The translations under genes were made by a program, and so were the position numbers. The notes under the pieces are model-generated. The model ran no database searches. It had not been told where the DNA came from and saw nothing but the letters and a program-made list of their open reading frames with translations. A stretch of DNA of 64,000 bases from Pseudomonas phage PhiPA3. The stretch's first letter is position 1, and every line of letters starts with the position of its first letter. The DNA lies in sequence record HQ630627.1. One strand, 5' to 3'. Below are positions 19,367-41,360 of the stretch, piece by piece.

Positions 19367-19870
19367 ATGTTCCAACTGTTAAAGAGTTCTCCACTACGGT
19401 GGGTACTCGTCGGCTTGGTAATAGCCGTCGTTGGTGGTCTTGTCTTTTTCTACAATGAGTATACTGACGCCGTTAGGACAAATGGAGAACTTGTCCAACA
19501 AAACGATAAGCTTGAAAGGATTATCGAGCGTAACAATCAATCAGCGGCCATCACTGATCAGATTGTGTCAGACACTCTAAAACAAACCGTCGATGCGCAG
19601 AAACAGCAGGAACAATCACGAATAGAGGTGATTGATGAGTACATTAACTTGTCCCATCAAACCGCAATTAAATGGCCGACTGCTCCAAAGGGTCCGCCAG
19701 TGGTTGAAATTGGGAATGAGTCGGTTTCGGGTCACGCCACCAAACCGTCCAGTAATGATGTTAGTGGTGATAGTAGGGCTCTCTACGTTCTTGTTACACG
19801 GATGCGCGAACAATACTGCAAAGCCGGAGGAGAGGCCACCTACTGCAATACCCAGTCCACTACTCATTAG
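19367..19870 (+). CDS. i-spanin (Rz-like): N-terminal TM helix plus periplasmic coiled coil
   Basis: MFQLLKSSPLRWVLVGLVIAVVGGLVFF TM segment, then a charged coiled-coil region; GAGG RBS. Confidence 0.55.
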   Translation: MFQLLKSSPLRWVLVGLVIAVVGGLVFFYNEYTDAVRTNGELVQQNDKLERIIERNNQSAAITDQIVSDTLKQTVDAQKQQEQSRIEVIDEYINLSHQTAIKWPTAPKGPPVVEIGNESVSGHATKPSSNDVSGDSRALYVLVTRMREQYCKAGGEATYCNTQSTTH

Positions 19871-20078
19871 GTGCGAACCAGATGAACCGCCTGATCCGTT
19901 GGTGCTCATCAATGCCCTGGATCGATATAAAGGGCAAGGCATAACCGATGTTTGGGAAGCACGCTTTCTGATCATGTCGGAAGCGTGGATGAAACAAACT
20001 GGTAATATTGGGTTATGCAATATCCGAATCGACAAGCTGCGTGATTGGAACACAAAGCAATTTGGTTTGGAGAAGTAA
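19716..20078 (+). CDS. o-spanin (Rz1-like) lipoprotein in the +1 frame, overlapping and extending past the Rz-like gene
   Basis: signal-like MSRFRVTPPNRPVMMLVVIVGLSTFLLHGC (the lipobox is imperfect: His at -2), followed by a Pro-rich segment with Cys. Confidence 0.45.
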   Translation: MSRFRVTPPNRPVMMLVVIVGLSTFLLHGCANNTAKPEERPPTAIPSPLLIRCEPDEPPDPLVLINALDRYKGQGITDVWEARFLIMSEAWMKQTGNIGLCNIRIDKLRDWNTKQFGLEK

Positions 20079-20081
20079 GTC

Positions 20082-20489
20082 ATGACGTTAGAAGATACAC
20101 TGTCGAACATGGGTGCTGAACCCATTTCCGCCGCCGAGAACTTCAGGCAGATGATGGCTTTCCTGAACGGAAGTCTTATTCGTGCTGGTCAAGAGAAAGT
20201 TACAGAAGCAACACCTAGTGATCAGGTGTTGCAGGCAATTTACTCTATCCCAGATCAGGCACAGCGTGAAGCTATCCTGTTCCGGGAGTACAAAGAGATG
20301 CCAAAAAAAGATTCGTACAAATCGGTAGTGATTGGCGCAACCACCATTATCGCTGCGATTGTTATCGCTGCATTGGTTGGAATTGTAAAAGCGGAAGGAC
20401 CGATGGATGCTAATACAGCAGATTTGTTTAAATTGATTAGCCAAGGCTTGATCGAGTTACTCAAAGCCATCATTGGTTCCGGACAGTAG
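20082..20489 (+). CDS. membrane protein (single TM at residues ~83-105); holin candidate
   Basis: hydrophobic SVVIGATTIIAAIVIAALVGIV segment; sits between the spanins and the endolysin. Confidence 0.35.
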   Translation: MTLEDTLSNMGAEPISAAENFRQMMAFLNGSLIRAGQEKVTEATPSDQVLQAIYSIPDQAQREAILFREYKEMPKKDSYKSVVIGATTIIAAIVIAALVGIVKAEGPMDANTADLFKLISQGLIELLKAIIGSGQ

Positions 20490-20496
20490 AAAATAT

Positions 20497-20527
20497 AAAA
20501 CCTCCCTCGGTTCTCGGGGGAGGTTTT
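20497..20527 (+). terminator. hairpin AAAACCTCCC-loop-GGGAGGTTTT followed by TTTTATAATG
   Basis: palindrome followed by a T-tract, seen directly. Confidence 0.5.
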
Positions 20528-20582
20528 ATAATGCTATGTAGGCTGAGTAACTTTTTTCTTAAGCCCCATTAGAGGTTTTAGC

Positions 20583-21110
20583 ATGAGTGATCGTTTCCCA
20601 TACAACCTTCCTTCTAGGGAAGCGCTTGTACGCTTGATCCGAGAAACGTCCAAACATACTGGCATTCAATCGGACTACGTAAGTTTTGAGGACCTGTTCT
20701 ATTCTCCGACAGCGCAAGTTCCTGGTCGTACCTACATCGAAATGGAAGATCATATCGGTGCAGTGAAGGACTGGTTCGTTTTCCGCCGTTTGGATATGGC
20801 CACTGTTCTTGGTAACAACACAATTCTGCAACTGACTGAAGCACCGACTCCAGCGGCAGTTGCTACCGAGATTAACCGTTCCCGTAACATGCAGTTCGGG
20901 CCGGATGACCTGTCGTTCTCTACTGACGTAATCCCACATTCAGAGAACGAATTTATTTATACTGTCCGGGCAATGACTGGTTCGTACGCTTACTACGGTA
21001 GCGTTGACGTAACCATCCGTCTGGTTGGTGGTAGCCCCTATGCTCGGGTATTGGAAGACGGTACTTTCCGTTATACCGAAGATGGCAATCTCCGCGAGCT
21101 TGAACACTAA
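20583..21110 (+). CDS. hypothetical protein (175 aa)
   Basis: ORF with AGAGG RBS. Confidence 0.5.
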   Translation: MSDRFPYNLPSREALVRLIRETSKHTGIQSDYVSFEDLFYSPTAQVPGRTYIEMEDHIGAVKDWFVFRRLDMATVLGNNTILQLTEAPTPAAVATEINRSRNMQFGPDDLSFSTDVIPHSENEFIYTVRAMTGSYAYYGSVDVTIRLVGGSPYARVLEDGTFRYTEDGNLRELEH

Positions 21111-21112
21111 AG

Positions 21113-21922
21113 GTGAGTAACATGACATTACTGAAGAAAGGCGACAAGGGTGACGCCGTAAAACAACTACAGCAGAAACTCAAAGACCTTGGGTATACCC
21201 TGGGTGTCGATGGCAACTTCGGTAATGGCACCGATACTGTCGTTCGTTCTTTCCAAACCAAAATGAAGCTTAGTGTTGATGGTGTGGTTGGTAATGGTAC
21301 TATGAGTACTATTGACTCTACTCTAGCAGGCATTAAAGCGTGGAAGACTAGTGTACCTTTCCCTGCGACGAACAAATCCCGAGCAATGGCAATGCCAACG
21401 TTGACTGAAATAGGTCGACTGACAAACGTTGATCCTAAATTGCTAGCGACATTCTGTTCTATCGAAAGCGCGTTTGATTACACAGCTAAACCCTACAAGC
21501 CCGATGGCACAGTGTACAGCTCCGCCGAAGGTTGGTTCCAGTTCCTGGATGCAACATGGGATGACGAAGTGCGTAAACACGGTAAGCAATATAGCTTCCC
21601 TGTTGATCCTGGTCGTTCTTTGCGTAAAGATCCACGGGCTAATGGCTTGATGGGCGCTGAGTTCCTCAAAGGGAATGCTGCTATTCTGCGGCCAGTACTG
21701 GGTCATGAACCGAGCGACACAGATCTTTATCTAGCCCATTTCATGGGAGCAGGTGGCGCAAAACAGTTCCTTATGGCCGATCAAAATAAATTGGCTGCCG
21801 AATTGTTCCCTGGTCCAGCTAAGGCTAATCCTAACATCTTCTATAAATCCGGAAATATTGCCCGCACTTTAGCAGAGGTCTATGCAGTCCTCGATGCTAA
21901 GGTAGCCAAGCATAGAGCTTAA
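21113..21922 (+). CDS. endolysin: N-terminal peptidoglycan-binding domain plus C-terminal lytic transglycosylase-like domain (phiKZ gp144-like architecture)
   Basis: DAVKQLQQKLKDLGY...VDGNFGNGT...VRSFQ PG_binding_1-like repeat; catalytic-like ESAFDY...EGWFQF segment. Confidence 0.75.
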   Translation: MSNMTLLKKGDKGDAVKQLQQKLKDLGYTLGVDGNFGNGTDTVVRSFQTKMKLSVDGVVGNGTMSTIDSTLAGIKAWKTSVPFPATNKSRAMAMPTLTEIGRLTNVDPKLLATFCSIESAFDYTAKPYKPDGTVYSSAEGWFQFLDATWDDEVRKHGKQYSFPVDPGRSLRKDPRANGLMGAEFLKGNAAILRPVLGHEPSDTDLYLAHFMGAGGAKQFLMADQNKLAAELFPGPAKANPNIFYKSGNIARTLAEVYAVLDAKVAKHRA

Positions 21923-21931
21923 GGAATAAAC

Positions 21932-22630
21932 ATGGCTAAGGCTACAAAAATCTCCGAATACGAAATTCTAACCGAGCTTACCGGTGACGAATACGTTGAG
22001 GTAATTGCACCCACCCCTGAAGGGGAACAACCTTTTAAAAACTACCGTGTATCGACGGCTAAGTTTGGTATGGGTAAATCCGCCTATGAACTGGCGGTTG
22101 AAGGTGGTTACACCGGCACTCAGGAAGAATGGCTGGCATCACTGCAAGGTGAATCAGCTTATCAAATCGCGGTTAAGTATGGCTATACCGGTTCCGAAGC
22201 CGAATGGAATGCCGTGTTTGATACCATCTACATTCGCGATGCATCTTCGGCCGGTAAGATCCTCGTAGTTGGTACGGCCGGTACACCGGAGTGGCAAGCT
22301 TTGACTAAGACCCGCGTTGGTCTGGATCAAGTGGATAATACTGCTGACGCCGATAAACCGATTTCCAACGCCGTAGCGGTAGCCCTGGCCAGTAAAGCGG
22401 ATCTGGGCGAAGACGGTAAGATTAATCCAGAACAACTCCCAGCTTCGACTGCCCCGGTTGCAGCCACTGTGGAAGAGGTTCTGGAAGGAGTAGATAATAC
22501 CAAGTTTATTACAGCTGAAACAGTATTTGCTCTGCTGGCTGAAATTGGTATTACAAAAGACGGCAGCGGTAATTGGACCATTGATAGTTCCAAGCTGAAC
22601 CCGCAACCTGAATTCCCAGTCGTGCCGTAA
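21932..22630 (+). CDS. fibre-associated protein with two SAYE(L/I)AVxxGYTGTexEW repeats; N-terminus paralogous to the 22758 protein
   Basis: repeat motif and N-terminal similarity (TGDEYVEVI...NYRVS vs TGEEFLEVI...NYRLM). Confidence 0.55.
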   Translation: MAKATKISEYEILTELTGDEYVEVIAPTPEGEQPFKNYRVSTAKFGMGKSAYELAVEGGYTGTQEEWLASLQGESAYQIAVKYGYTGSEAEWNAVFDTIYIRDASSAGKILVVGTAGTPEWQALTKTRVGLDQVDNTADADKPISNAVAVALASKADLGEDGKINPEQLPASTAPVAATVEEVLEGVDNTKFITAETVFALLAEIGITKDGSGNWTIDSSKLNPQPEFPVVP

Positions 22631-22670: not shown

Positions 22671-22757
22671 TTTAAAATGCCTTACTGTATGAGTCTTATT
22701 TCTCTTAAGACGTGTAAGAAGTAGTTGAAAGACTCTCTTCACCCAAAGGAAGACACA

Positions 22758-25493
22758 ATGGCTGCTAATCCCAATCCGGGAATGATTTCCCAAATGCCCT
22801 CCCTCAACATCGTAACTGGTGAAGAGTTCCTGGAGGTCATCAAGCGTGAGACGGATGGTTCGTACAAGAACTATCGTCTCATGGTATCTAAGATCCGCAC
22901 AAATGAAGGCCTTTCCGCCTATGAAGTTGCCGTTAAGAACGGCTTCGTTGGTACAGAACAGGAATGGCTGGATTCCCTTCAGGGTAAGTCGATCTATCAA
23001 CTGGCTCTGGAACACGGCTTTGTCGGTTCTGAACAAGAGTACCTGGATTCGCTTAAAGGCGAAGCTGGTAAATCTGCTTATCAGACCGCAGTGGACGAAG
23101 GTTACACTGGTACGGAAGCTCAATGGCTCCAAACCCTCGTAGGTCAATCGGCTTACGACATTGCCGTCGAACAAGGGTTCGTTGGTGATAAAGACGCATG
23201 GCTGGCAAGCCTGAAAGGCGAGAAAGGTGACAAGGGCGATGATGCAGATCTCACTGCTGAGAAGCTGCAAGAACTCCTGAACCTGCATGGTTACACCATC
23301 GAACAATCTCTGCGTGTACTGGGTGATAACTCTGGTGTTATTGCTAACGCAGGCTTCTTCAACTTCCTGTTCCTGTTTGACAAGCGTTTGAATAACCGGG
23401 CTAACGACGATGTCGATAAAGTACCGCAGCGCATGGTCGAAATGGGTCGCATGGAAGCAGAAGGTTATTCCTATTGGAAAAACGAACCTGCTAGTACAGA
23501 TGACCCGTCAGGTCCTCTGCCGGCTGTACCAGATTCTGAACTGCGTCTGTTTGATGACGGTAAGTTCCAAATCGGTAGCCTTAACGATTACATTGAATTC
23601 GGCGATGGCTCTAAGGTAAGTATCGTTGTTGGCGGTTCTGCTGTTACTTACGATCTGGCTGAGGCAACTCAAGGTAAAGACGGTAAGTCTGCTTATGAAA
23701 TTGCAGTAGAACACGGCTATACGGGTACCGAGCAAGAATGGCTTACGTCTCTGCGTGGTCCGGCTGGCGCGTCCGCTTATGACGTTGCGGTAGAGCAGGG
23801 GTACACCGGTACCGAAACTGAGTGGGTAGCTAGCCTGCAAGGCACCGATGGTAAATCGGCATATGAGTCAGCAGTTGATGGCGGCTTCACGGGTACTGAA
23901 GAAGAATTCAATACTTCTCTTGCCCAACCAAAAGGAAAGAGTGGCGGTGTATTCATTACCGACATCACTCCCCAATCGGTAAGTGAAAACGTTGGTAACA
24001 AAGTCATGTCGGCCGATGGCTTCTCATTGGTCAGTGCGTCGTCGACTACTAAAGCCGTTACTGTGGCTGTGACTGCAATCACCGGACATACTAACTATCG
24101 TCCAGTGGTTAAGGTAAACGGCGTGACGGTTACCCTGACTGCTAAAGCAGATGCACCTCTGTGGACTGGTACAGCTAATATCACTTTGGCTGATCCTGCT
24201 GAAGGTGAAACCAATGTGGTTATCACCGCAGAACACGAAGATGGCGCTTCGGCTACCAGTACTGTAGCAATGGATACCCCGGCTGTAGTTCTGACTGGCG
24301 TATTCACCGGTAACTATCCGGGTACTCAGACTGAGCTTAAAGCTGGCGATACCATGTCGATTGCTATCACTACCGATCAACCGGTGGTGGCTTATGAGAT
24401 CGAGAACTCGGGTGCATTTGCTGCCAAGAGCGGCACTCTGACATCCGGTACTACGCACACCATCACGGGTGTAGCTATCGCTGATCGCGGTAATACCGCC
24501 GCTATGCATGGTTTCCGTGTACGTGTACGTAAGGCCTCTGGTTCTTGGTCGAACTGGTTCGATAGCTCTACCGTAGGTTCCACTGAGAAGACCCATGTCG
24601 TTAAGTTGAACAACCTGAAGCCAACCGTTACTATTGGTGCAGTAACGTATCCGGCTGGTCAAGGCGCGATTAAGGGTGGTGAATCGGCCCAAGTAGCTAA
24701 CACCCTGGCCAACTTCGACACAGTGTCTTATACCTCAGGTAATGGACAACTGACGGTAGCTAACCCGACTCAATCCGAAGCCAATAAGGTAGTTACTTAT
24801 CTGGCTGGCACATATAACGATTCCACTAACAACTTCACCATCACTGCCAATCGTGCAGCCAACGGTTCTAGCACTACAGCTAGTACTGTGGTGAAGATTG
24901 CTAACGTGGATGTTGCTGCTACTATTACTTACGCAGCACCGCGTCTGCGTTCTGGTGGTAATAATGGTACAGTTGCCCAGCAGCACACTATCACACTCAC
25001 CGCTACTCAAGCACTGACCGATCCGCCGAGCATGAACGTGCCGTCGGGTACCTGGGAAACAGCTGCGTGGCAACCGGACGCCGCTCGTAAAGTCTGGACC
25101 CGTAAACTCATTGTCCATGACAATGATTCCAAAGGTCAGTTTGATTACAACAACGTCGTCCTGAAAGGCCTGAGTGGTCGTGTAGTCTCTACTCTGGCAG
25201 GTGGCGGCACCTATGTAATCGGTGGCTTCGTATTCCGTACTCTGACTGTACCGGCCTATCCGAACCGTTCCACTGAAATTGGTACCGTCGTTGCCGACAC
25301 CAGCAAACTGCGTTGCTCTAACCTCTCGAAGGGAGCTAGTGGTAGTCTGAACTTTACTTATCAGGCAGCTACTACTGACGCGGTTGATCGTTACTCGATC
25401 ACTGGTGGTGACACTTGGTATAACTGCGACGCTGCTAACGCCGTATCTAACACATCCGGTCTGATGCAGATTGAACTTGAGGAAGTCGTATAA
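22758..25493 (+). CDS. large tail fibre protein (about 911 aa) with seven SAYE/GxTGTEEEWL repeats and a Ser/Thr-rich beta-rich C-terminal region
   Basis: ATG at 22758 with AAGGAAG RBS; repeats seen in the translation. Confidence 0.65.
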   Translation: MAANPNPGMISQMPSLNIVTGEEFLEVIKRETDGSYKNYRLMVSKIRTNEGLSAYEVAVKNGFVGTEQEWLDSLQGKSIYQLALEHGFVGSEQEYLDSLKGEAGKSAYQTAVDEGYTGTEAQWLQTLVGQSAYDIAVEQGFVGDKDAWLASLKGEKGDKGDDADLTAEKLQELLNLHGYTIEQSLRVLGDNSGVIANAGFFNFLFLFDKRLNNRANDDVDKVPQRMVEMGRMEAEGYSYWKNEPASTDDPSGPLPAVPDSELRLFDDGKFQIGSLNDYIEFGDGSKVSIVVGGSAVTYDLAEATQGKDGKSAYEIAVEHGYTGTEQEWLTSLRGPAGASAYDVAVEQGYTGTETEWVASLQGTDGKSAYESAVDGGFTGTEEEFNTSLAQPKGKSGGVFITDITPQSVSENVGNKVMSADGFSLVSASSTTKAVTVAVTAITGHTNYRPVVKVNGVTVTLTAKADAPLWTGTANITLADPAEGETNVVITAEHEDGASATSTVAMDTPAVVLTGVFTGNYPGTQTELKAGDTMSIAITTDQPVVAYEIENSGAFAAKSGTLTSGTTHTITGVAIADRGNTAAMHGFRVRVRKASGSWSNWFDSSTVGSTEKTHVVKLNNLKPTVTIGAVTYPAGQGAIKGGESAQVANTLANFDTVSYTSGNGQLTVANPTQSEANKVVTYLAGTYNDSTNNFTITANRAANGSSTTASTVVKIANVDVAATITYAAPRLRSGGNNGTVAQQHTITLTATQALTDPPSMNVPSGTWETAAWQPDAARKVWTRKLIVHDNDSKGQFDYNNVVLKGLSGRVVSTLAGGGTYVIGGFVFRTLTVPAYPNRSTEIGTVVADTSKLRCSNLSKGASGSLNFTYQAATTDAVDRYSITGGDTWYNCDAANAVSNTSGLMQIELEEVV

Positions 25494-37123: not shown

Positions 37124-37167
37124 GACAACATATTGCCCTCTCCCGAAGGAGAGGGCTTATGCCGTCA
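37124..37167. terminator. bidirectional extended palindromic element (GACAACATATT-gccctctcc-cgaa-ggagagggc-TTATGCCGTC)
   Basis: between convergent genes; overlaps both stop codons. Confidence 0.65.
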
Positions 37168-37575
37168 CACCTGTTCCCGACGTTCTCTCATGCAGAACTG
37201 CATCAGCTGTTTGAGGTCTTCTATAAACACACATTCGTCCGTGTACAGAAGCCAGCACGGGGTCTTCCGCGCAATGCGTTTATAGAACTTCTCGGAGGTG
37301 AGATCGTTTTTGTCGATCGGAAGAATGCCCTTCCACAGATAAGGCCCAAACAGGGTCGGAAGTCGAAGCGCACTCTCGTCACGAACCAAGCGCATCGTCG
37401 AATTAAGTCTTGCAATCCGAGAACACTCATGGTCACGACATTGCACTAAAGCAGCATGCAATGACGCCATCACACACAGCCGCTTGAGATCATCATCCAC
37501 ACGATTCCAAAAGAATAGCCATAATCCTTCGGCAACTTTGCGGACGGGTCTCATGATTCTGTTTGTAATGCTCAT
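37165..37575 (-). CDS. hypothetical protein (136 aa)
   Basis: ORF. Confidence 0.45.
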   Translation of the reverse strand: MSITNRIMRPVRKVAEGLWLFFWNRVDDDLKRLCVMASLHAALVQCRDHECSRIARLNSTMRLVRDESALRLPTLFGPYLWKGILPIDKNDLTSEKFYKRIARKTPCWLLYTDECVFIEDLKQLMQFCMRERREQV

Positions 37576-37586
37576 GGGTTACCCTA

Positions 37587-39059
37587 CTATTTCGGTAAAA
37601 TGAACTGCGTATAGGGAGAGCAGTAGATCGCAGCTCCACCCTCTGCTACAAACACAGTTGAGTATGAATAGGCTAACGGTCCATTCGCAACGATCAGAAG
37701 TTCAACCTTAACCCCGTCACACGATACCCGATTGAGTTGATTCCGTGAAGGAATGTCTTGCGCTAAGACCAACTTGATCTTAACCTTACGTCCTTTGTAA
37801 TCAATCGGAATATCGAGATGCGAGGTGTTCTGGGTAATAGTCTTCTTCAGTTGAGTGACCGTCTTCTTACCGGCCTGTACAGTCTCGTAGAAACTGTCGG
37901 TAATGTCGATTTTGCCAACCGACTCTCCAAGGGTACCAGCCAAGTAATCCGTCAAACGGCGTTCAAGAATATTGAATTCTCCAACTGCCTCGTTAGACAT
38001 CCTGGGTGGATTGAGAGTCCGACTAATCAACGCCATTTCTGGTGTTGACAGCACGCGGATATCATCGTGACGCATGAGTCCAGACAAACCCATAGATTCA
38101 ATCCGTTGACGCTGTTTGGCACTAAAGCAGTTGGCCAGGTTTAGAATACCCAGCTCGGGCATATCACTCCCGTAGGCTTCAGTGTGGATTTTAATCAACT
38201 CTTCAATGTACTCTTCAGCTTCATTGGCTTTGTAGACACCGAAGGTTGCCTCAGAAATCCTTCGTCCAAGTAAAAGATCTGATTTAGCAAGTTTATCTTT
38301 GGCCGTGTCCTTTGGCCGCAGGCCAGCATTATGCATTCGTCCAAGATTATACATGTAGTAGAACCCATCATGGGGCTTACCACTGTTAATCATGAACAGC
38401 AACCGAGACTCCATGATCAACGGACTCACCGGCTTCTTTTTCAATTTGTTGATGGCGTCGCCTTCAACTACTACCTGCACAGGCTCTGCCGTTTTAGACC
38501 CACCCCCCCTCAAGGCGTTTATATCTGCCTTGTCATTGCCCATGTCGCCGGAGTGACCCTCTACCCAAGTCATCTCCAATTTACGACCACCATTAATCCA
38601 CGCATCGCGTTGACTGATGAGATCCAACCAGAGTTCTTTGTTGGGCACTGGAGTACCATCTGGTTTAATCCAGTTGTTTTTAATCCATTTGGGTGACCAT
38701 TGCGTCAGTCCTTTGCGCACGTACTCACTGTCGAGCAACATGGTCAACTGTTTAGCTGGGGTACCAAGGGCGATTTTAAAGCCATTGATGGCAGCGCTAA
38801 GTTCTGCCGTGTTATTGGTCGGGCGATCAACGACCTTACCAAATGCATCGATATAGTCGATCACTGTACAAGTGTCTTCGACGCCAACATCCTTATAGCC
38901 TTTCGCCGTAGGTTGTTGTTTGGTTGCAGCCTTTGACTTCATCGGTGTGTCGGTGTAGGTATACCCGTGCACGCCCCAACCTGCTACGTTCTGACGAAAC
39001 GACCCGTCAGTATATAGCACAATACCATCACACATTGAATGTTCCTCTGTCGTTTCCAT
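37587..39059 (-). CDS. RNase HI-like domain (N-terminal ~190 aa) fused to a ~300-aa C-terminal domain of unknown function
   Basis: IVLYTDGS, TNNTAELSAAINGF, DSEYV, WxxxxW, VEGHSGDMGNDKAD match E. coli RNase HI catalytic motifs (TDGS, NNRMEL, DSQYV, VKGHAGHPENERCD). Confidence 0.75.
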   Translation of the reverse strand: METTEEHSMCDGIVLYTDGSFRQNVAGWGVHGYTYTDTPMKSKAATKQQPTAKGYKDVGVEDTCTVIDYIDAFGKVVDRPTNNTAELSAAINGFKIALGTPAKQLTMLLDSEYVRKGLTQWSPKWIKNNWIKPDGTPVPNKELWLDLISQRDAWINGGRKLEMTWVEGHSGDMGNDKADINALRGGGSKTAEPVQVVVEGDAINKLKKKPVSPLIMESRLLFMINSGKPHDGFYYMYNLGRMHNAGLRPKDTAKDKLAKSDLLLGRRISEATFGVYKANEAEEYIEELIKIHTEAYGSDMPELGILNLANCFSAKQRQRIESMGLSGLMRHDDIRVLSTPEMALISRTLNPPRMSNEAVGEFNILERRLTDYLAGTLGESVGKIDITDSFYETVQAGKKTVTQLKKTITQNTSHLDIPIDYKGRKVKIKLVLAQDIPSRNQLNRVSCDGVKVELLIVANGPLAYSYSTVFVAEGGAAIYCSPYTQFILPK

Positions 39060-39086: not shown

Positions 39087-39506
39087 TTATTTCTGTCGAC
39101 AGCTGTCCAACCACGACCTGTGGGCTTGCTCAATTTTGGACCGTTCGGAAGCAATGTATGTTCGCAGAGAATTCGCATAGGCAGATATCATTTTGTCAAC
39201 CTCAGCATCATTAATGGCTAATTCGAGGTCTTCTTCAGATGGCTGCTTAGGTACTTTCCCCGCTGGGGGAAGGTCAAACGGGCCACAATCAGCTAACAGA
39301 CGCTGAGCACTTGAATGTGGTTTGTTTGTTTGTCCCCGCTGTGTTACCGCATTCGTCGTTGTGGTCACGGTCGAATGGTTATCGACCGCCGAAGCGGCAT
39401 AGTGAATCACTGTCTCCTGACTGTTGTAGGTTGGTGCATACAGTACACAACCTGAGAGAGTGATACAAAGTGCTAACAGTAGGTTTTTGGACATGTGATC
39501 CACCAA
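39087..39506 (-). CDS. lipoprotein (signal peptide LLLALCITLSGC); o-spanin-like or exclusion-type lipoprotein
   Basis: canonical lipobox L-S-G-C, Pro-containing periplasmic region, C-terminal Cys. Confidence 0.5.
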   Translation of the reverse strand: MVDHMSKNLLLALCITLSGCVLYAPTYNSQETVIHYAASAVDNHSTVTTTTNAVTQRGQTNKPHSSAQRLLADCGPFDLPPAGKVPKQPSEEDLELAINDAEVDKMISAYANSLRTYIASERSKIEQAHRSWLDSCRQK

Positions 39507-39517
39507 TCCTTACGGTA

Positions 39518-39808
39518 TTATTTCAGAAGTTCGCCAAGGGCTTTACGACGAGCTTTAAGGGCAGCGTCTTTGTCTAGTGTCGGACAGACTTGGGCGAGTT
39601 GCTTTTTAAGGGCAACATTCTCTGATCTGACTTCGTCCAACTCGCTAACAGTCATGATGAAGCTGAGTAGCAGGATCACCACTACCGCAAACATGAAGGT
39701 AACGTGTTTGTTTTCCAGCATCACTTCTTTTATCGTACGGTCTCCAAATACCGCACGCTTCAGGAAGGGCCAAATGAGGAGCAAGGCTTTAATAGTTACA
39801 CCGACCAT
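39518..39808 (-). CDS. small membrane protein (96 aa): one or two TM segments, a short coiled coil and a charged C-terminus; i-spanin or holin-like
   Basis: FMFAVVVILLLSFIMTV TM segment, ELDEVRSENVALKKQLAQ, KARRKALGELLK tail; GAGGTAA RBS. Confidence 0.45.
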   Translation of the reverse strand: MVGVTIKALLLIWPFLKRAVFGDRTIKEVMLENKHVTFMFAVVVILLLSFIMTVSELDEVRSENVALKKQLAQVCPTLDKDAALKARRKALGELLK

Positions 39809-40006
39809 GATTACCTCTGTCGTTGATTAACTACGCCTACCCATACAAGCCTAAAGGCTAGAACAATAGACATACTGACAGCATATCTCTGCGGGTTATG
39901 TGTAGCATTTCCGCAGTAGTATACCCGACGTTTTTCAAGTTCACAAGCGTAAGTGACAAATTTTATAGATGGTAACCCATCCAAGCTCCGCTCATGAGGA
40001 AAGCAC

Positions 40007-41320
40007 ATGTACATTCTGAAAGGCTTTTACAGCTATCCAGCGTTAATCTCTAACGTTCCGGATGTTGTTGCTAAGTTTGGAGAACTCTCCAGCAATAGCT
40101 CAACCTATGCAAAAGACAAGACCATCCACACCGGTACGTCCACACCCAACACTTGTTTTATTTCTTTTCATAGCGTAAAGGATGAAACCACTGTTGTAGA
40201 TTTGACAGGTAATATGAAAGACCAAGTCTTGAAGATTGGTGAGTTCATTTATCAGCAATCTATTCAAGGTACAATTCGCGATAACCCTGACGTTCTGCGT
40301 CAGTTGGTTATGGCTGAGTTCGGTACTAAGATCAGTACGTTCACGTCTGGTCGTATGCTGACCAACAACACCATTTGGATGCCGGAATACGTTAAGTTTA
40401 CCGTCATCGAAGCTAATAACCCGAACGAAGTCACTATTTGGCTGTGCGATGAGTCCTTCGCTGCTCAGTACGATGAGTACGAGATCGAGATCGTTCACCC
40501 GCTGGTTCCGTATGACCAATTCTTCCAAGACCCGCTGATTGTTAAGCAATTGCTGGAAGCTTATGATCTCCCAGCTAAGCTGGAAGAAGTTCAGGCAGCG
40601 CGAGGGGATTACCCGTACACATTCCTGAAGGCGTTCATGTTTGCTTATCACAATCCCCGTGATACCACGATGCAGTTCCCTGCACACTGGATTGCGATCG
40701 TTTATGGTCAAGCGGGTAACAACCCCGATTTGATCAAAGACAAGATTGTGAAGGAAATCCTGGAGGGTTCTACCCATCCAAGAGAAGAATGGGAAGTAAT
40801 TCTTCCTGATCTGTTTCTGACCACCGAGTATATTTTCACTCCGTTCTGGAACCAATACTCCGTTCCAAACAGTGATTTCCGAGCAGGGATTTATAGCCCA
40901 ACGGTAGATCCGCGTAAACGGGTTGCTCTGCTGCGTCGTACCGCTCGTGGTTCGGGTTACACGGATGTGTGGGTAAACAACAACTATGAATTGTCTGCCA
41001 ACATCTACAAGTCGATTGCCTTTGGTGCAATTGGTAACCCGAAGAATCGCGGAGGTATCACAAAGTTCAGTCAGAAATGGCCGGACTACATGATCGTATC
41101 GAACGATTCGCCAGATATCGATCGGATGTCTCCAGATACTGTCGCTTGGACCATGTTGTTTAGTAAGTTGCTGAAGGCTGCTGAGGCCATGACTTTGTAC
41201 ACTTCTGTACCGGCTGGTGTTTCTCGAATGGTACGCGATGGCGTCATCTACGCCAGCGCCTACTATAAGAACGTGAACTACATGGTCGTGTCTAAGGCTT
41301 CGGTTGAGCAATTTGGTTGA
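40007..41320 (+). CDS. hypothetical protein (437 aa), likely structural
   Basis: GAGGAAAG RBS; the minus-strand shadow ORF 40100..41323 is rejected. Confidence 0.55.
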   Translation: MYILKGFYSYPALISNVPDVVAKFGELSSNSSTYAKDKTIHTGTSTPNTCFISFHSVKDETTVVDLTGNMKDQVLKIGEFIYQQSIQGTIRDNPDVLRQLVMAEFGTKISTFTSGRMLTNNTIWMPEYVKFTVIEANNPNEVTIWLCDESFAAQYDEYEIEIVHPLVPYDQFFQDPLIVKQLLEAYDLPAKLEEVQAARGDYPYTFLKAFMFAYHNPRDTTMQFPAHWIAIVYGQAGNNPDLIKDKIVKEILEGSTHPREEWEVILPDLFLTTEYIFTPFWNQYSVPNSDFRAGIYSPTVDPRKRVALLRRTARGSGYTDVWVNNNYELSANIYKSIAFGAIGNPKNRGGITKFSQKWPDYMIVSNDSPDIDRMSPDTVAWTMLFSKLLKAAEAMTLYTSVPAGVSRMVRDGVIYASAYYKNVNYMVVSKASVEQFG

Positions 41321-41360
41321 CATTATAAAGGAGAGGGTTTCGACCCTCTCCTTTTATTAG
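41321..41360 (+). terminator. hairpin AAAGGAGAGGGT-ttcg-ACCCTCTCCTTT (purine-first orientation) plus TTATTAG
   Basis: 12-bp palindrome with UUCG loop. Confidence 0.55.

Follow-up and report, generated by a model that had tools for sequence, protein, structure and literature searches.

A second, conserved gene pair of spanin architecture beside the RNase H-like gene of Pseudomonas phage PhiPA3

The 64,000-nt stretch of the Pseudomonas phage PhiPA3 genome analysed here (record HQ630627.1; hereafter the window) carries on its minus strand, next to an RNase H-like gene, two small adjacent genes which encode a membrane protein and a lipoprotein. This pair had been pointed out in an earlier reading made from the sequence alone, and both open reading frames (ORFs) were indeed found at this place. 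The membrane-protein gene (39518-39808, minus strand) has an ATG start with a GAGG 7 nt upstream and consists of 96 codons. The lipoprotein gene (39087-39494, minus strand) starts with ATG as well (MSKNLLLALCITLSGC...) and gives a product of 135 aa, 100% identical to PhiPA3 gp177. The sequence-only reading had assigned 139 aa to the lipoprotein; the ORF is real, but its start needs to be moved. A 139-aa product would begin at a TTG at 39506, 11 nt past the stop of the membrane-protein gene (a GTG at 39503 is another possible start upstream of the ATG), but it is the ATG at 39494 from which all homologues align, and with this start the spacer between the two genes is 23 nt.

Both proteins give full-length matches to PHROGs without an assigned function (the membrane protein to phrog_14813, E 2.9e-43; the lipoprotein to phrog_15897, E 1e-61). 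By tblastn, the window is collinear with the genomes of phages phiKZ and KTN4 from gp136 to gp161; the membrane protein shares 53% identity with gp156.1 of phiKZ/KTN4, and the lipoprotein 32% with phiKZ gp156. In the phage collection searched, the relatives are all at a nucleotide identity of about 73%. Judged by sequence and gene order, the pair is the syntenic homologue of phiKZ gp156.1/gp156, which likewise lie between the gp157-type head gene and gene 155, and there is no substantial difference between the two pairs. The pair is uncharacterised in the literature searched, where no functional statement on gp156, PHIKZ156 or PhiPA3 gp177/gp178 was found. The name 'gp177' was not found in the searched part of the supplement to a study of soluble co-fractionation proteomics (PMC10449902), a negative that is uninformative for membrane proteins.

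The lipoprotein precursor has a signal peptide with the lipobox LSGC, in which the Cys to be lipidated is Cys16, with Val at +2. It is followed by a Ser/Thr-rich, disordered tether of about 45 aa, and a Pro-rich stretch, CGPFDLPPAGKVPKQP, is present. In the AlphaFold2 (AF2) model, residues 1-60 are disordered (predicted local distance difference test score, pLDDT, <50), and residues 62-135 form, with pLDDT near 90, a domain made of a short helix, a Pro-rich loop and a 39-residue helix. This domain is bracketed by C70 and C132, the latter situated three residues before the end of the 135-residue chain. The lipobox, the Pro-containing stretch and the near-C-terminal Cys (C132/135) which had been noticed beforehand are all there.

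An exhaustive HMMER profile search of 1.84 billion cluster representatives revealed that the lipoprotein family is small, comprising 39 clusters with lengths of 93-152 aa. The lipobox is kept in 37 of the 40 family representatives and none of them has Asp at +2. C70 and P82 are invariant in the alignment, and the lipid Cys, F73, L75, P76, L110 and C132 are nearly so; the distance between the two domain cysteines is 56-69 residues across the family, and the tether, measured from the lipid Cys to the first domain Cys, has 30-70 residues. It is this retention of the lipobox, of a +2 position free of Asp and of both cysteines that argues against the features of the pair being due to chance. With such a signal sequence, the lipoprotein would be sorted to the outer membrane. 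Of the three representatives that lack a lipobox, one at least (P0023) is a truncated gene call, and P0044, which has no initial Met, looks truncated too. The 94-aa call P0023 (locus L019, 5293-5736, a JGI metagenome contig) is shortened at the N-terminus, and its full ORF has the signal peptide MFKKLLTLAPVCLALSAC; truncated calls of this kind make the family seem less uniformly lipidated than it really is. A fold search with the lipoprotein model gave nothing below E 7 in the PDB, where the top matches, coronavirus spike helices, are noise, and in BFVD it gave family members only, labelled 'lipoprotein' or uncharacterised. An Lpp-like covalent attachment through a C-terminal Lys was ruled out, as the C-termini are not conserved.

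The 96-aa protein had been credited with transmembrane segments in the plural. Only one stretch, residues 36-54, is strongly hydrophobic (Kyte-Doolittle up to 2.9); the N-terminal helix is weakly hydrophobic and includes K7, K17 and R18. The AF2 model of this protein, built with 14 sequences (mean pLDDT 67), contains helices at 2-21, 26-32, 34-74 and 80-95 with a break at C75-P76. Hydrophobicity and modelled helices together indicate one transmembrane domain (TMD), not several. The charge flanking it (about +2 versus -1) mildly favours an N-in/C-out orientation, and the predicted layout is a cytoplasmic N-terminus (1-35), the TMD (36-54) and a periplasmic tail of 42 residues (55-96) with a helix-hinge-helix shape, ending in ARRKALGELLK. 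The C-terminus is as highly charged as had been described, since 9 of the last 18 residues carry a charge.

As many as 18 of the 24 invariant positions of the membrane protein fall within its first 37 residues (family alignment). Mean column conservation is 0.85 in the N-terminus, 0.50 in the TMD, 0.53 in the juxtamembrane helix and 0.67 in the C-terminal helix (ARRK.LGELLK). The motif WPFLK...T.KE..L.N of the cytoplasmic N-terminus recurs in Burkholderia phage FLC9, Ralstonia phage RSL2 and Pseudomonas phage DT01. Beyond the phiKZ-like clade the membrane protein is longer (145-171 aa) and contains a coiled coil, a Pro-rich spacer and, near its end, a short helix; the phiKZ-like proteins look like shortened versions of these relatives. 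In the RSL2 pair (locus L004, 3474-3971 and 4031-4366) the annotated starts of both genes are wrong: the membrane protein truly begins with MSSAFYIFRLIWPFLKEL..., and the 'ORF055' product with MKKFTTGVLFVFLAAC, which includes the lipobox.

The divergent neighbour of the pair is a head gene, the gp157 homologue (40007-41320, plus strand). On the other side lies the RNase H-like gene (37587-39059, minus strand; PF00075, E 1.1e-21), which corresponds to PhiPA3 gp176 and to phiKZ gp155/Nlp2 (65% identity to phiKZ gp155), and next to it a gene for a 136-aa homologue of gp154 (37165-37575, minus strand; 47% identity to phiKZ gp154; phrog_9853). In phiKZ, genes 154, 155, 156 and 156.1 are co-transcribed, and the expression of 155 is high at 20 min and depends on ChmA; RNA-seq read counts exist for both 156 and 156.1 (Gerovac et al., PMC12571901). 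By analogy with phiKZ, we infer that the PhiPA3 pair, the RNase H-like gene and the gp154 homologue form one operon, of which the gp154 homologue would be the last gene. As the phiKZ pair is co-transcribed with 155, late co-expression of the pair with the endolysin looks unlikely.

The exact 11-mer TATGGGTAGGC (39835-39845, minus strand) precedes the start of the membrane-protein gene by 26 nt. Its GGGTAGG part is invariant in nine phiKZ-like phages, and so is a second box, GTCTA, about 35 nt further upstream (with flanks to about 39880); between the two boxes there are small GC hairpins whose sequence varies. This element is probably a part of the operon's own promoter or 5' untranslated region. 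In the 64-kb window there is a single exact copy of the 11-mer, and copies with 2 mismatches are no more frequent than expected by chance; being specific to this locus, it was ruled out as a general promoter consensus of the window. RNAalifold gave only invariant pairing at -2.4 kcal/mol, and no structure is claimed. The 67-aa ORF 39811-40014 (minus strand), which occupies the divergent intergenic region, is probably no gene, and neither, probably, is the 407-aa ORF 40100-41323 (minus strand), which is a shadow ORF of the gp157-type head gene encoded on the other strand.

The order of the divergent head gene, the membrane protein, the lipoprotein, the RNase H-like gene and gp154 is kept across the relatives examined, namely in Phikzvirus, Pawinskivirus, Serwervirus, Phabiovirus, Tepukevirus, Noxifervirus and two metagenomic contigs. 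The synteny was seen in phages PS119XW, 201phi2-1, Phabio, Viktualia, Psa21 and Noxifer, and also in FLC9 and RSL2 (both gene starts mis-annotated) and DT01. In SPLA3, an SPN3US-like Salmonella phage, the order is the same except that an exonuclease gene separates the pair from the RNase H gene.

A link to predicted spanins was provided by a profile of the 40 lipoprotein representatives, which was compared with 1,041 ORFs from all fetched loci. FLC9, SPLA3, DT01 and RSL2 contributed no sequence to this profile, and yet its best matches outside the family were the syntenic lipoproteins of these four phages (E 1.1e-9 for FLC9, 2.5e-8 for SPLA3, 1e-4 for DT01 and 0.022 for RSL2). The SPLA3 lipoprotein (gene 204), in turn, matches positions 169538-169780 of Cronobacter phage CR5 (tblastn, E 6e-6), and this match falls inside the CR5 gene 169340-169786. 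Together with CR5_183, this gene is listed as a 'separated' o-spanin/i-spanin (outer- and inner-membrane spanin) pair in the Young-lab census (Kongari et al. 2018, PMC6139136). CR5_183 (171 aa, MVAGIIKLLPLLTFLLEVFK...) is the counterpart of SPLA3 gene 203, with 36% identity. On the membrane-protein side, DT01_75 is an intermediate (E 5.8e-6). By these profile and tblastn matches, the lipoprotein is a member of the CR5/SPN3US 'separated spanin' family. The CR5/SPN3US pair (SPLA3 203/204; PHROGs 8719 and 8165) resembles that of PhiPA3 in the type of locus, with the pair upstream of the RNase H-like gene, in gene order, in the lipoprotein domain (C..F.LP...P...long helix...C), which is the same, and in an N-terminal KLLPFL-type motif of the membrane protein, which is similar. 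The two differ in the membrane subunit, which in CR5/SPN3US comprises 169-171 aa and includes a coiled coil as well as a Pro-rich spacer but has 96 aa in PhiPA3, and in that SPLA3 has no second spanin pair after RuvC (one site inspected), whereas PhiPA3 has one.

The other pair of PhiPA3 belongs to a lysis cassette at 19367-21922, far away from the RNase H-like gene. The separate lysis cluster mentioned earlier is real, and the two genes at the RNase H-like locus thus form a genuine second pair of spanin architecture in PhiPA3, one that is conserved. The cassette (all plus strand) consists of an i-spanin (19367-19870; phiKZ gp141 homologue; phrog_7584 'Rz-like spanin', E 3.1e-64), an o-spanin overlapping it (19716-20078; phiKZ gp141.1 homologue; lipobox LLHGC; phrog_456 'Rz-like spanin', E 1.8e-5), a holin (20082-20489; gp142 homologue), a lysis regulator (20583-21110; gp143 homologue) and an endolysin (21113-21922; gp144 homologue). 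In phiKZ, 141-144 form the lysis cassette, and gp141/141.1 complement a lambda RzamRz1am prophage (Manohar et al., PMC12894885); gp156/gp156.1 are not mentioned in that study. The census of Kongari et al. records only gp141/141.1 for phiKZ and the corresponding pair for 201phi2-1 (PMC6139136). Thus, of the earlier suggestion of a second spanin-like, holin-like pair, the spanin-like part holds, both for the architecture and for a lipoprotein whose family includes the listed CR5 o-spanin, and the holin-like part does not: the 96-aa protein has one true TMD and no holin-family match, and the holin of this phage is the gp142 homologue.

The two pairs of the phiKZ-like genome share the two-component format, a lipoprotein partner and two conserved periplasmic cysteines in the lipoprotein. 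They differ in that the gp141/141.1 genes are overlapped, stand in the cassette and have a function shown by experiment, whereas the genes of the PhiPA3 pair at the RNase H-like locus are separated. No sequence relation between the two was detected by hhalign or profile search. The lipobox of the cassette o-spanin, LLHGC, is unusual in having His at -2, and its ORF is missing from the mechanical ORF list. A homologue search with this protein found none, which suggests that overlapped o-spanin genes are seldom called.

The two kinds of pair are distributed unevenly among the relatives. Phages of the phiKZ type have a pair both at the RuvC/cassette site and at the RNase H locus, and so does RSL2, where the former (ORF088/087) is accompanied by a holin-like ORF086. 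SPLA3 has a pair at the RNase H locus and only a holin-like protein at the RuvC/cassette site. Erwinia phage RAY, conversely, has an overlapped pair at the cassette site (with an i-spanin identical in Ea35-70), and at its RNase H locus there is a TM/coiled-coil protein of no detectable relationship, without a lipoprotein. Such a pattern of complementary loss fits an overlapping function of the two kinds of pair in the course of evolution, although few lineages are concerned. The profile of the membrane protein gives a borderline match (E 0.0012), to be taken as a lead only, to the RAY i-spanin (locus L027, 2969-3433, minus strand), and the cassette-side spanin of Agricanvirus may thus be a relocated relative of the gp156.1 type. 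At its N-terminus (MWILLKELFLKNFK...), the RAY/Ea35-70 i-spanin is similar to the motif WPFLKELFLG found in the membrane proteins of FLC9 and RSL2. Downstream of RuvC, SPN3US-like phages (in SPLA3 at locus L024, 4133-4705) and Serratia phage PCH45 (locus L026, 13448-13951) encode a protein with a large N-terminal soluble domain and C-terminal TMDs, similar to the class IIIb holin of phiKZ, and it has no spanin pair next to it.

We propose, with a probability of roughly 40%, that the PhiPA3 pair is a spanin-type envelope bridge which contributes to the disruption of the outer membrane. As in the Young-lab definition of an o-spanin, the lipoprotein has a lipobox and no Asp at +2, and its gene lies directly downstream in the 'separated' architecture; spanins commonly have conserved periplasmic cysteines and a tail of helix-hinge-helix shape. 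The membrane protein has the one TMD and the helical tail expected of an i-spanin, but a conserved 35-residue cytoplasmic segment precedes them and the tail has only 42 residues. The combined periplasmic length (42 + 119 = 161 residues) would be long enough to cross the periplasm, given that known two-component spanins range from 62 to 300 residues (PMC6139136).

In such a bridge, the 96-aa protein would be anchored in the inner membrane with its N-terminus on the cytoplasmic side, and its C-terminal helix-hinge-helix tail would reach into the periplasm. The lipoprotein precursor would be lipidated at Cys16 and, having no inner-membrane retention signal, would go to the inner leaflet of the outer membrane, from where the flexible tether would let the helical domain of about 70 residues, probably held together by a C70-C132 disulfide, hang down towards the inner membrane. 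There this domain might be bound by the C-terminal helix that is conserved in the membrane protein, so that the two membranes would be joined through the peptidoglycan mesh. After clearance of the wall by the endolysin, the complex would assist in disrupting the outer membrane in the manner of Rz/Rz1-type spanins, acting beside the cassette spanin at 19367-20078. The likeness to lambda Rz/Rz1 lies in this proposed mechanism, that is, an inner-membrane subunit and an outer-membrane lipoprotein joined via their C-terminal parts. The proportions are reversed, however: in lambda the long helical part belongs to the inner-membrane subunit and the mature lipoprotein has 40 residues. Besides, lambda Rz is almost devoid of a cytoplasmic N-terminus, the lambda genes are embedded, and there is no sequence similarity to the PhiPA3 pair.

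Several observations weigh against this proposal. A cassette spanin is already there, and in phiKZ that pair alone complements lambda Rz/Rz1; moreover, the phiKZ homologues of our pair are transcribed with the replication and nucleus-maturation gene 155 and not with the lysis cassette. The best-conserved part of the membrane protein is its 35-residue cytoplasmic N-terminus, and we know of nothing comparable in known i-spanins. The periplasmic tail, 42 residues in PhiPA3/phiKZ, has 88-115 residues in FLC9, RSL2, DT01 and SPLA3. The link to CR5 is also one-sided: with the membrane-subunit profile (hmmsearch) SPLA3_203 scored a non-significant E of 0.31 and CR5_183 gave no match, and hhalign of the PhiPA3-type against the CR5/SPN3US membrane subunits aligned 64 collinear columns at a probability of 40%, which is not significant either. 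The spanin assignment of CR5 is itself bioinformatic, made by inspection only. Paralogy of the lipoprotein with the cassette o-spanin was considered as well and is not shown, as the hhalign alignment covers 23 helical columns (77% probability) and is not anchored on cysteines. Finally, the cassette spanins match 'Rz-like spanin' PHROGs, whereas the pair matches no annotated spanin family in PHROGs, Pfam or NCBIfam. Spanins are fast to diverge; even the cassette o-spanin of RSL2 is missed by a gp141.1 profile.

Transposon insertion sequencing (Tn-seq) of phiKZ bears on this question from another side. Its Table S2 records 0 insertions in the central 80% of orf156, orf156.1, 152-155 and 157, one site each with 3 reads in orf141 and orf141.1, and 9-19 sites each in the neighbouring orf158-160 (PMC12676376). 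At the density of the neighbouring dispensable genes, about 5-10 sites would be expected in orf156/orf156.1, which is a rough estimate. In the raw Table S3, 4,631 reads at 6 sites fall in orf156.1 and 23 reads at 5 sites in orf156 (PMC12676376). Two interchangeable pairs would both be expected to tolerate insertions, and neither spanin-type pair does so appreciably; gp141/141.1, being almost free of insertions, can hardly have a backup in gp156.1/156, which is a further point against a second spanin. Since polar artefacts have been documented by the Tn-seq authors, among others for the neighbouring orf157 (PMC12676376), and since the downstream gene 155 is essential, these data are suggestive, not decisive.

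The same insertion gap can be read as a sign that the pair is indispensable without being lytic. In this scenario it would be a spanin-derived, envelope-anchored module of nucleus-forming phages, in which the cytoplasmic N-terminus, by recruiting or sensing a partner in the cytoplasm, couples an intracellular step (membrane-associated capsid assembly or Nlp2/nucleus maturation) to the envelope and the lipoprotein anchors the complex. Such a role would agree with the N-terminus being the most conserved part, down to a motif shared with FLC9, RSL2 and DT01, with the fixed linkage to the essential gene 155 and to head genes, with the conserved, locus-specific upstream element, and with a central 80% free of insertions in both phiKZ genes where about 5-10 sites would be expected. 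The gap, however, can be a polar effect of the kind seen for orf157, and the 4,631 raw reads of orf156.1 lie in its terminal 10%, so that some insertions there are viable. Strict linkage is weakened by the exonuclease gene lying between the pair and the RNase H gene in SPN3US-like phages. The idea is speculative, and we regard it as unlikely. A superinfection exclusion function, by which the pair would block injection or mask a receptor from mid-infection on, would work like T4 Imm/Sp, T5 Llp or Cor while being unrelated to them. These small envelope proteins of phages are produced ahead of lysis, Llp and Cor being outer-membrane lipoproteins, and a disulfide-stapled outer-membrane lipoprotein is the general format of Llp/Cor-type proteins. 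Both products of our pair are predicted to reside in the envelope, and their genes stand outside the lysis cassette, in an operon which in phiKZ is highly expressed at 20 min. The resemblance to T4 Imm/Sp or Cor that had been suggested for this pair finds no counterpart, though, in Pfam, NCBIfam, PHROGs, PDB (Foldseek) or BFVD, by sequence or by fold. Imm/Sp, Llp and Cor are accessory genes, and exclusion modules are usually patchy and fast-changing, while the pair is fixed at one locus across genera with different hosts and receptors; exclusion genes are also normally dispensable in single-phage laboratory growth, which disagrees with the lack of insertions in the central 80% of orf156 and orf156.1 unless polarity on orf155 explains it. 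We find this possibility rather unlikely.

A further reading is that the two genes encode adjacent small envelope proteins which have independent, possibly minor functions and form no complex. Gene order and adjacency, however, are strictly kept across distant genera, despite divergence almost beyond recognition, and the C-terminal helix conserved in the membrane protein stands opposite a helical domain conserved in the lipoprotein, which makes independent functions quite improbable. Even more improbable, in our opinion, is that the 96-aa protein acts as a holin, an antiholin or a regulator of lysis timing, with the lipoprotein as a periplasmic sensor. Its small size, its membrane location and its charged C-terminus would suit such a role, and lysis inhibition in phiKZ has been suggested, its components not being known (Manohar et al., PMC12894885). 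With one true TMD, though, the class I and II topologies of three and two TMDs fail, and only a class III-like single TMD is still compatible; Pfam and PHROGs hold no holin family that matches. In the phiKZ-type holin the cytoplasmic domain is large and the periplasmic end very short, which leaves little for a periplasmic regulator to bind, and the regulator identified so far, gp143, is cytoplasmic.

phiKZ and PhiPA3 are model nucleus-forming phages, and their lysis pathway was defined only in 2026, in a study which leaves gp156.1/gp156 unmentioned. Should the pair prove to be a working spanin, phiKZ-like phages would possess two spanin loci that differ in architecture and would be a living instance of the two-locus intermediate in spanin evolution proposed by Kongari et al., and the SPN3US-type spanin would gain its first testable relatives in a tractable system. 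Should it not, a conserved and possibly essential envelope-spanning pair with another role would adjoin the essential nlp2 gene. Either outcome is testable with lambda complementation, Cas13a editing and antisense knock-down, which have already been used for these phages.

One more observation concerns the region which follows the lysis cassette. A phiKZ gp145 query ('tail sheath' in RefSeq) gave repeated matches at 21932-22630 and 22725-25493 (plus strand). Residues ~7-130 of this query match at 21929, 22049, 23562, 23682 and 23757, which suggests repeated N-terminal modules.

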